From the IMG/VR virus record IMGVR_UViG_2690316148_000012: a DNA stretch of 4,820 bases; one strand, 5' to 3'. Under the pieces are notes generated by a model. The model had not been told where the DNA came from. It worked only from the letters and a program-made list of their open reading frames with translations, and did not search any database. The DNA comes from a virus. Lineage: Duplodnaviria; Heunggongvirae; Uroviricota; Caudoviricetes. This document shows, piece by piece, positions 1 through 4,820 of this stretch (the stretch's first letter is position 1; each line of letters opens with the position of its first letter). The translations under genes were made by a program, and so were the position numbers.

Positions 1-155
1 CCTCAAAAACACCATCATACACTAAATCAGTAAGTTGGCAGCATCACCGAAGTGGTAAAGAAGATAATAAAGAATAATATTTAGGGTTATAGGTCTTAGC
101 CCATTTTAAATGGAAGGCAGACATGCAGCCATGCATACTTCGCATGGCAACATAA

Positions 156-2712: not shown

Positions 2713-3096
2713 ATGCGTGATATTCAGATGGTTCTTGAGCGTTGGGGAGCGTGGGCGGCTAATAATCATGAAGATGTGACCTGGTCGTCCATTGCCGCCG
2801 GTTTTAAGGGATTAATTACTTCAAAAGTAAAATCTCGCCCGCAATGTTGTGACGATGACGCGATGATTATTTGCGGGTGCATGGCCCGTCTGAAAAAGAA
2901 CAACAGCGATTTGCACGATTTATTAGTAGATTATTATGTAGTCGGTATGACATTCATGTCACTGGCAGGTAAGCATTGCTGCTCTGATGGTTATATCGGG
3001 AAAAGGTTACAGAAGGCTGAGGGCATAATTGAAGGGATGTTAATGGCATTAGATATCCGGTTAGAGATGGATATCGTTGTTAATAACTCTAATTAA
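2713..3096 (+). CDS. quuD: Q-family late-gene antitermination protein, 127 aa
   Basis: ORF track 2698..3096, which begins at a TTG. I prefer ATG 2713 ([22 protein letters not shown]...), which has GGAG at 2702-2705 with 7-nt spacing. Cys-rich ([19 protein letters not shown]), consistent with a Zn-binding Q antiterminator. Located just upstream of a hairpin/terminator region, as expected for Q. Confidence 0.8.
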
Positions 3097-3129
3097 TATG
3101 CCAATTGTTTACTAAAAATTATTAAAAAT

Positions 3130-3147
3130 GGGGCGTTGCAACGCCCC
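3130..3147 (-). terminator. perfect 18-bp palindrome GGGGCGTTGCAACGCCCC flanked by A/T tracts; candidate rho-independent terminator for the convergent porin gene, possibly bidirectional
   Basis: The sequence is its own reverse complement (GC-rich stem, TGCA loop). On the - strand it is followed by ATTTTTAATAATTTTT (from + 3113-3129), a U-rich tract. On the + strand it is followed by CAAAAATAAA, so it is a poor + terminator. Confidence 0.4.
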
Positions 3148-3235
3148 CAAAAATAAAGGGTAATATATAACAGAAGGTTTATATAGTTAGAAGCAAGGTT
3201 GTGCTCCTAAAGGAAGTGGCTTGAGGGAGCCACTT

Positions 3236-3274
3236 ATATGTTGGGGAGGCAAAGCCTCCCGCAACATATCTTTT
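3236..3274 (+). terminator. candidate rho-independent terminator downstream of quuD (tR'-like): ~15-bp stem with one bulge, AAA loop, then TTTT
   Basis: ATATGTTGGGGAGGC (3236-3250), loop AAA, then GCCTCCCGCAACATAT (3254-3269) with a bulged G at 3261, followed by CTTTTAG (T-tract 3271-3274). A second hairpin sits immediately upstream (AAGTGGCT 3214-3221 / AGCCACTT 3228-3235). Confidence 0.45.
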
Positions 3275-3284
3275 AGTAATCAAA

Positions 3285-4367
3285 TTAGAACTGGTAAACC
3301 ATACCTACAGCAACGATATCATCGGTAGCAACGCCAGATGCTTTCGTGAAATCGCTCTTATCAATCAGGTTGATTTTGTAATCAACAAAAGTGGACATAT
3401 TTTTGTTGAAGTAATAGGTTGCACCTACATCAATATATTCAACCAGGTCCTGATCACCCCACGCACCCAAGTCTTTTCCTTTAGATTGCAGGTAAGCAAC
3501 GGACGGACGCAGACCGAAGTCGAACTGATATTGTGCAACTACTTCGAAGTTTTGTGCTTTGTTGGCAATATGGTTATTACCAAAAACAGTCATGTTCTGG
3601 GTTTCAGAATAGGTGGTAGCCAGATAGATGTTGTTCGCATCATATTTCAGACCAGCTGCCCATACTTCAGCATTTTGACCAGATGCATTCAGGCTGTTGT
3701 TACCGTAGATAACCTGATTATTAGTGCGGTCAGATTTAGCATAGGTTGCACCTACACCGAATCCTTCATACTCATAAGTAGTGGAGAAACCGAAACCATC
3801 ACCATTAGCTTCAGTTACGTCAGTGCGGTCATTTTTACCCTGATACTGAGCAGCAAAGTTCAGACCATCAACCAGACCAAAGAAGTCGTTGTTACGATAA
3901 GTTGCAACACCAGTGGTGCGACCAGTCATGAACACATCTGTTTGAGTCCAAGTGTCACCACCGAATTCTGGCAGGACGTCAGTCCACGCACCGATGTCGT
4001 ATGCTACACCGTAGTTACGGCCGTAATCGATGGAGCCGTAGTCACCGAATTTCAGGCCAGCGAAGGCAAGACGGGTTTTATCTTTGGAGGAACCTTGAGA
4101 TTCAGCGCGGTTGCCTTTGAATTCATATTCCCACTGACCGAAACCAGTCAGTTGATCGTTGATTTGGGTTTCACCTTTGAAGCCAAGACGGGCATAAGTA
4201 GTATCACCATCATCTGCATCATTAGAGGAGAAGTAGTGCTTAGCATTAACTTTCCCGTACAGATCCAGCTTGTTACTGTCTTTATTATAAATTTCAGCTG
4301 CCTGAGCAGACATCGCCATCAGTACTGATGCAGCTACAGCAGAAATTGCCACTGTTAATTTTTTCAT
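3285..4367 (-). CDS. nmpC: general diffusion porin of the OmpC/OmpF/PhoE family (nmpC-type prophage-borne porin), precursor ~360 aa with an N-terminal signal peptide
   Basis: ORF track 3285..4427 (-). Start placed at the internal ATG 4367..4365 ([29 protein letters not shown]...), a typical signal peptide with an AQA-A cleavage site. Mature N-terminus [16 protein letters not shown] is porin-like. The C-terminus ends ...VGMVYQF, with the terminal Phe characteristic of outer-membrane beta-barrels. Convergent position after quuD fits DLP12. Confidence 0.8.
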
Positions 4368-4571
4368 CGTGAGCCCTTTTTTTGAACTATTATTAAAAAA
4401 TGATGTCACTGCGCGATAAATATTCATCTAATCAATGTGATTATTTCAAGATGTAAGTTTTGGTTTCTCGTTTGATTTGTGAAGTAGATCTCTATTTTTA
4501 TCTGAACTTTTTTCTATCGAATCCTATTCATGGCTCTTGGCTGAATAAAAATAAATCTATTAGCCAATTTA

Positions 4572-4690
4572 NNNNNNNNNNNNNNNNNNNNNNNNNNNNN
4601 NNNNNNNNNNNNNNNNNNNNNNNNNNNNNNNNNNNNNNNNNNNNNNNNNNNNNNNNNNNNNNNNNNNNNNNNNNNNNNNNNNNNNNNNNN
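4572..4690. other. run of 119 N (masked or unresolved sequence) in the AT-rich region upstream of the porin gene
   Basis: Literal n characters in the input. The two ORF-track entries spanning it (4460..4744 + and 4528..4755 -) are artefacts of translating N as X. Confidence 0.99.
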
Positions 4691-4820
4691 TTATTTGTTG
4701 GGATTTGCTTATGTATTTGTAGTGGTGTTTTCAATACTCGGTAGCATTCTCGCAAATATCATTTAGTGGTTTACGTACGTAAAAAATTGGGGTAATGACT
4801 CCAACTTATTGATAGTGTTT

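Follow-up and report, generated by a model that had tools for sequence, protein, structure and literature searches.

A complete porin gene of the NmpC/Lc type in an IS1-bounded fragment of a lambdoid prophage

The window, by which we mean the whole stretch of 4,820 nucleotides that was analysed, carries on its minus strand what we identify with high confidence as a complete porin gene of a lambdoid prophage: it is the gene known as nmpC in the prophage DLP12 and as lc in phage PA-2, and the annotation pipelines label it OmpD or OmpC. The gene is already known, and the same protein is encoded in thousands of E. coli and Shigella assemblies as well as in sequenced phages; the only part that is specific to the present genome is the setting of the gene between two insertion sequences. 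The "prophage" is here a 4.7-kb fragment with IS1 at both ends and a cut gene P. The coordinates of the features discussed below are collected in Table 1.

The list of open reading frames for the window contains a minus-strand frame running from 4427 to 3285, which amounts to 380 codons when counted from the upstream ATG, while translation from the ATG at 4367 yields a protein of 360 residues with the C-terminal end VGMVYQF. This protein matches the Pfam Porin_1 model over its entire length (model positions 1-337 of 337; E-value 3.1e-153; 510.6 bits as against a cut-off of 23.7), and the NCBIfam model for the "porin OmpC" subfamily is matched with 518 bits, above its cut-off of 484. Both matches are far beyond chance. 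It falls below the cut-offs of the NCBIfam equivalog models for PhoE (506 versus 599 bits) and OmpF (484 versus 583 bits). The N-terminus displays the MKK start, a hydrophobic core and an AQA/AE cleavage motif, and is predicted to be a Sec signal peptide that is cut after AQA. The record for lc of PA-2 has a signal peptide of 23 residues at the same place, and the mature chains of the solved porins begin at query residue 24, with the sequence AEIYNKD.

A search of all PDB sequences aligned residues 24-360 of the query with the first to the last residues of the OmpK37, OmpC, OmpK36, PhoE and OmpF chains (E-values of 1e-116 to 1e-137). The C-terminal strands are complete, with the alignment reaching the last residue in every solved homologue. 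All six residues that constrict the pore (K16, R42, R82, R132, D113 and E117 in the OmpF numbering) are retained; from the alignment with the K-12 porins, they are K39, R60, R99, R150, D130 and E134 of the precursor. A single-sequence AlphaFold2 model had a pLDDT of 30.2 and is uninformative; hence, the barrel fold rests on the alignment to the solved structures. The mature protein is colinear over its full length with the 16-stranded trimeric general porins of known structure, whose fold it would share and whose trimeric state it may share. The earlier note, made from the letters of the window alone, had described a reading frame uninterrupted from a canonical signal peptide to the terminal YQF. 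The frame list, the Pfam match and the alignments to the solved chains agree with this description, and it also holds that no insertion sequence lies inside the gene.

Table 1. Features of the window, with positions counted from its first nucleotide.
Feature	Position	Strand	Basis
IS1 copy, last 48 nt	1..48	plus	Exact match to the end of the annotated IS1I of K-12
quuD, Q-type late antiterminator gene, convergent with the porin gene	2713..3096	plus	Pfam Phage_antitermQ, E 4e-53
Structured 3' UTR of the porin transcript (ipeX region), 161 nt	3124..3284	minus	Alignment, RNA fold
Intrinsic terminator, GC-rich, in minus-strand orientation	hairpin 3130-3147, T-run 3124-3129	minus	Hairpin and T-run in the sequence
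Porin CDS including stop codon; 360-aa precursor of the NmpC/Lc type	3285..4367	minus	ORF list, Pfam, NCBIfam, identities
Mature porin, 337 aa, with PEFGGD loop-3 motif and C-terminal YQF	3288..4298	minus	Alignment with K-12 OmpC, OmpF, PhoE and OmpN
Predicted signal peptide, 23 codons	4299..4367	minus	PA-2 lc sig_peptide (69 nt, same place); mature solved chains
Non-coding in-frame extension of 20 codons, covering the 5' leader and the -10 region of the promoter	4368..4427	minus	A7/A8 polymorphism, Shine-Dalgarno, RefSeq and PA-2 starts
Porin promoter/regulatory region (PnmpC)	4368..4571	minus	204 bp identical to K-12 DLP12 and ETEC1747
Proximal CRP-binding site as annotated in PA-2 (putative here)	4475..4495		PA-2 misc_binding 1434-1454
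119 consecutive N (bases masked or unresolved) between the porin and late genes	4572..4690		Sequence
Intergenic sequence remaining on the side of the late (lysis) genes, cut off by IS1	4691..4790		Alignment
Second IS1 copy, first 30 nt, same orientation	4791..4820	plus	Exact match to the start of IS1I

The genomic neighborhood is that of a lambdoid prophage. The window presents ninB/ybcN, ninE, ybcO, rusA, ylcG and quuD, all of them intact, and then the porin gene on the opposite strand; quuD is annotated at the equivalent position in both ETEC1747 and K-12. The closest relatives are WP_000737275.1, from an intact lambdoid prophage of E. coli ETEC1747, and the "OmpD" protein of the Escherichia phage PhiR34_1 (PV340559), each of which is 100% identical to the window porin. 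At the DNA level these two loci are 98.8-99.6% identical to the window, and they show the order ybcN, ninE, ybcO, rusA, ylcG, Q, porin (on the opposite strand) and holin; however, their copies reside in complete phage or prophage genomes, whereas the window segment is cut by IS1 on both sides. The placement of the porin gene after Q on the opposite strand is also seen in DLP12, PA-2 and PhiR34_1 and in ten further loci encoding the identical protein. The shared order of the nin genes, rusA and quuD in DLP12, PA-2 and PhiR34_1 bears out the earlier reading of the gene as a prophage-borne one of the NmpC/Lc type.

Two alternatives, both of which we reject, bear on the extent of the product and on the ownership of the gene. 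The ATG at 4427 is open and in frame, and some gene callers annotate a product of 380 residues from it, as in the case of P0009, one member of a JGI/IMG cluster. That this long form is the true product is extremely improbable given what is found between the two start codons: in a comparison of the window with 14 relatives the A-tract at 4377-4383 is polymorphic (A7/A8), and in 8 of these 15 loci, which encode the same or a near-identical porin, the 1-nt difference in length means that the upstream ATG is no longer in frame. PhiR34_1, with its identical protein, is among the eight. The sequence AAGGG is present 6 nt 5' of the ATG at 4367, whereas no Shine-Dalgarno-like sequence was seen in the window before the ATG at 4427. 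The upstream ATG also overlaps the likely -10 element of the promoter, and hence should lie upstream of the mapped "G" at which transcription starts. Moreover, a signal peptide must be N-terminal, and every paralogue starts at the position equivalent to MKK, which is also where RefSeq and the PA-2 record place the start of the porin. Thus, the suggestion that the 20 additional codons are untranslated is upheld by the loss of frame, the missing Shine-Dalgarno sequence and the MKK starts of RefSeq and PA-2. As to ownership, the PGAP name, the RefSeq label ompC and the NCBIfam assignment to the "porin OmpC" subfamily would make the gene the core chromosomal ompC, or failing that some other host porin. 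We consider this next to impossible: the protein is only 64% identical to K-12 OmpC as against 90-100% to the phage and prophage porins, its neighbors are quuD, rusA, ninE and ybcN in the window and, in the relatives, also essD, rrrD and rzpD, and the gene is found in 36 sequenced phage genomes.

The dN/dS ratio is 0.11-0.13 in comparisons with lc and nmpC, and this pattern of substitution points to a porin gene under selection. A decayed pseudogene is ruled out by the 100% identity to the phage and prophage copies together with a dN/dS of about 0.12. Lc of PA-2 (J02580) has 90.1% protein identity, and 91.1% DNA identity over 1475 nt. Relative to Lc the window porin shows 36 differences, including five fewer residues, and these are clustered at residues of about 182-231, at 263-267 and in the C-terminal quarter, regions which we take, from the OmpF structure, to be the external loops L4-L6 and L8 of the solved porins. 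Just three of the 36 differences fall in columns that are invariant among OmpC, OmpF, PhoE and OmpN, although such columns make up 45% of the alignment; at one of the three it is the window porin, and not Lc, that keeps the conserved Arg. In the first 175 residues the two proteins are the same except for two positions. The synonymous divergence is 0.06 over residues 1-175 and 0.44-0.69 beyond them. In view of this jump the allele looks recombinant, with a 5' half that is Lc-like and a 3' half that is more distant; the nucleotide comparison thus suggests that the window porin is a recombinant allele.

The region upstream of the porin gene can be interpreted with the help of the K-12 promoter PnmpC, to which it is identical over 204 bp. 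In K-12 the promoter activity is abolished by deletion of the region from -199 to -1, the transcription start has been mapped to a "G" by 5'RACE, and the promoter is activated by CRP and repressed by OmpR, IHF and MprA (PMC11677980). By position, a putative -35 element in the window would be TTGAAA (4449-4444), separated by 17 nt from a putative -10 element TGAATA (4426-4421), with the start G expected near 4414. A sigma-70 consensus scan returned no promoter-like site in the window, nor one in positions 10300-10950 of ETEC1747, where the sequence differs from the upstream region of K-12. Because the K-12 promoter, identical over those 204 bp, is experimentally active, we regard the scan as uninformative. 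The proximal CRP site, ATTTGTGAAGTAGATCTCTAT, is identical between the window and PA-2. PA-2 has a second, distal CRP site in its annotation, whose place is just past the IS1 junction; this site is absent from the window and has been either lost or displaced. In the place of the run of 119 N the relatives have an AT-rich spacer of 86 nt, and the sequence beyond this run aligns with K-12, PA-2 and ETEC1747 as far as the IS1 junction.

The other flank of the gene is conserved as well. The 3' UTR is about 95% identical to the sequence downstream of the porin in K-12 and PA-2, and it folds with -61.8 kcal/mol (z = -7.75 relative to shuffled controls). A scan of the whole window against Rfam at a permissive threshold gave no match; ipeX is without an Rfam family, and the 3' UTR was accordingly identified by alignment. 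Two papers describe ipeX as a 167-nt RNA that arises from the phage porin promoter as a part of the porin transcript and represses ompC and ompF (PMC12197685, PMC5069750). With a promoter region and a terminator of its own, a structured 3' UTR and one CRP site still in place, the unit has the predicted organization of a moron.

At both of its ends the fragment has suffered from IS1. At the left junction the replication gene P is cut, and the flank matches just the final 30 nt of this gene as it stands in ETEC1747. On the right, the junction falls between the upstream region of the porin and the terminator-like hairpin and holin gene of the intact relatives, in which the sequence past this point contains the distal CRP site (according to the PA-2 annotation), the terminator-like hairpin and essD. 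All of the 13 loci with the same or a near-identical porin that we inspected run on into holin, lysozyme and Rz genes, while in the window IS1 takes the place of the lysis side. The two IS1 copies have taken away the distal part of the upstream region and truncated gene P, so that what still carries the porin gene is a degraded element riddled with insertion sequences. Neither junction had a match among the GTDB species representatives, and both were absent from the 5426 complete E. coli genomes. The window is probably an entire short-read contig that was broken in the IS1 repeats of an IS1-rich genome, perhaps one of the Shigella type. PADLOC returned no match for the two small ORFs at 156-958, and a tRNA scan of the window found none.

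The literature on Lc and NmpC offers a model for how such a gene may act. By analogy, the porin would be a moron whose own promoter, activated by CRP, drives transcription even in the repressed prophage, and its product would be exported and inserted into the outer membrane as a trimeric diffusion pore. The ipeX 3' UTR would be processed from the same transcript and would lower the synthesis of OmpC and OmpF, so that the cell surface swaps the host porins for the phage porin. As a consequence, the permeability might be altered, and the receptors of OmpC-dependent phages and colicins might be removed or replaced. A paper by Castillo-Keller from 2006 reportedly deals with the role of Lc/NmpC and ipeX in outer-membrane permeability and receptor masking. 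The earlier note had likewise proposed that the porin can change permeability and serve as, or mask, a phage receptor, a proposal that coincides with the published role of Lc/NmpC and of the ipeX 3' UTR (PMC12197685, PMC5069750).

In an alternative view the gene would be intact and yet quiescent in a decaying, IS1-bounded remnant, and would contribute nothing to the outer membrane at present: IS1 is inserted 423 bp upstream of the start codon, whereby the PA-2-annotated distal CRP site is removed, IS1 has also cut gene P in what is a degraded prophage, the consensus promoter scan is without a site, and nmpC is called "quiescent" in E. coli B by the title of a paper (Prilipov 1998). Against this, the core promoter from -199 to -1, which is sufficient in K-12, is 100% identical here, and the coding sequence is that of PhiR34_1, with no sign of decay and with the low dN/dS noted above. 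Further, intact homologs are expressed elsewhere: in the Perceval prophage of LF82 the homolog is expressed 10-fold above the background in the lysogen, in the uropathogenic strain CFT073 it is expressed at 37 C as both mRNA and protein, and in S. flexneri it is induced under anaerobiosis. On balance a silent gene is unlikely. The IS1 copies themselves invite a further reading, in which the two direct copies and the 4.7 kb between them would mobilize the porin, ipeX, quuD and rusA as a unit. IS1 composite transposons, Tn9 for example, are built with a pair of IS1 elements in the same orientation, and that is how the partial copies at the two ends of the window are disposed; the absence of either junction from the complete E. 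coli genomes is also in line with it. However, the DNA between the IS1 copies has 99.6% identity to a prophage without interruption and follows it colinearly, and a resident prophage that was hit by IS1 twice, in independent events, is the simpler explanation. IS1-rich genomes such as those of Shigella, moreover, break short-read assemblies exactly at IS1, and those members of the protein cluster of this porin that bear the name Shigella sonnei are found on contigs of about 4.8-5.3 kb. A composite transposon is therefore quite improbable. We hold it to be just as improbable that the 4.7-kb block (porin, ipeX, quuD, rusA, the nin genes and a two-gene module) is a cassette which is selectively retained, or can be mobilized by IS1, in an IS1-rich genome. 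Were it one, a recombinant porin with variant loops and a truncated upstream region might confer a phage and colicin receptor profile, or a regulation, distinct from that of Lc and NmpC.

The identification as a prophage porin also agrees with how widespread the gene is. Of the 5426 complete E. coli genomes, 2503 contain it with a coverage of at least 80%, and the exact protein occurs on at least 1000 contigs and in 17,488 index blocks, under source names that include "porin OmpD [Shigella sonnei]" and "outer membrane porin protein LC". These frequencies, along with the copies in phages, indicate that an intact copy is the usual condition and that the IS5 allele of K-12 is a peculiarity. Prophage porins of the NmpC/Lc type alter outer-membrane permeability, antibiotic entry, heat tolerance and the sensitivity to phages and colicins, while their ipeX 3' UTR down-regulates the major porins of the host itself. 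We would annotate the gene as an intact porin of the NmpC/Lc type, rather than as ompC, with its start at 4367 and within an IS1-bounded prophage fragment.

Among the known systems, Lc of PA-2 shares with the window porin the position, orientation, signal peptide, proximal CRP site and 3' UTR (ipeX) region. NmpC of K-12 (DLP12, qsr'), once re-joined across IS5, is likewise 90.1% identical, and it has the same locus architecture and the same 204-bp promoter region. In the annotation of K-12 MG1655, nmpC is a pseudogene in two fragments of 1040 nt and 58 nt that are split by IS5B, so that the comparison with this locus confirms the earlier statement that the 3' end of the K-12 gene is broken by IS5. 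IS5B follows nucleotide 1040, where TTC ACT AAA supplied the CTAA target; with TTC ACG AAA at this point, the window lacks the target tetranucleotide. With respect to OmpD of Salmonella, nmpC of E. coli has been treated as an ompD-like gene (PMC3333887), and many records name the window protein OmpD. Finally, the window porin is a full-length homolog of the general porins of known structure (2J1N, 1OSM, 1PHO and 2OMF), with an identity of 62-68% (OmpF 62%, PhoE, the protein of structure 1PHO, 65%, and OmpN 68% among the other K-12 paralogs), and like them it carries PEFGGD in loop 3, the charged residues of the pore constriction and, at its C-terminus, the aromatic signal YQF; it differs from them in being phage-borne, in having its own regulation and in its distinct external-loop regions.

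The porin gene of the window (3285-4367, minus strand) encodes an NmpC/Lc-type precursor of 360 aa, which we compared with nmpC, its homologue in the K-12 prophage DLP12 that is split by IS5. Synonymous divergence from the latter is 0.06 over porin residues 1-175 as against 0.44-0.69 over residues 176-360, corresponding in window coordinates to a contrast between 3841-4367 and 3285-3840, respectively. The porin allele looks mosaic, and this contrast along the gene suggests that porin alleles have recombined. In K-12 nmpC the IS5 target is CTAA, lying within TTC ACT AAA, while the window has TTC ACG AAA for the same codons (F-T-K; 3327-3330); hence, the insertion site used by IS5 in K-12 is missing from this allele.

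Upstream of the porin start, the homopolymer preceding the Shine-Dalgarno sequence varies in length among 15 loci that all encode an identical or near-identical porin, with A7 in seven and A8 in eight of them. This length determines whether gene callers can lengthen the porin ORF to 380 aa. Farther upstream, four relatives carry an AT-rich spacer of 86 nt at the position of the N-run; its length therefore disagrees with the 119 N of the window.

Features of the window and of its continuation in an intact relative
Feature	Position	Strand	Remark
IS1, final 48 nt	1-48		same orientation as IS1 at 4791-4820
ORF, 142 aa, hydrophobic protein	156-584	minus	phrog_16940
ORF, 125 aa	581-958	minus	phrog_18061
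A7/A8 length polymorphism	4377-4383		porin 5' leader, immediately before Shine-Dalgarno sequence
N-run, 119 N	4572-4690		intergenic, upstream of porin gene
Second IS1 copy, initial 30 nt	4791-4820		same orientation as IS1 at 1-48
Terminator-like hairpin	L001 10748-10769 (ETEC1747)		equivalent just past window 4790

The two small ORFs (156-958), which overlap and are AT-rich (34% GC), are placed between the remnant of replication gene P and ybcN. Neither yielded an above-threshold Pfam match or any NCBIfam or PADLOC match, and both are annotated as hypothetical in ETEC1747, an E. coli with an intact lambdoid prophage and an identical porin. The pair is a moron-like module.

The two IS1 ends enclose a prophage fragment of 4.74 kb, with the left copy interrupting gene P. 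Neither the GTDB representatives nor 5426 complete E. coli genomes contain either junction. Probably the window is one entire contig, assembled from short reads of a Shigella-like genome rich in IS1.

At the right end of the window, IS1 parts the porin-holin spacer region from whatever comes next. In intact relatives the hairpin is followed by the holin gene essD, an order that resembles the tR' arrangement of lambda and, by this analogy, points to a late promoter that probably occupies the spacer between porin and holin, where it would diverge from the promoter of the porin gene.
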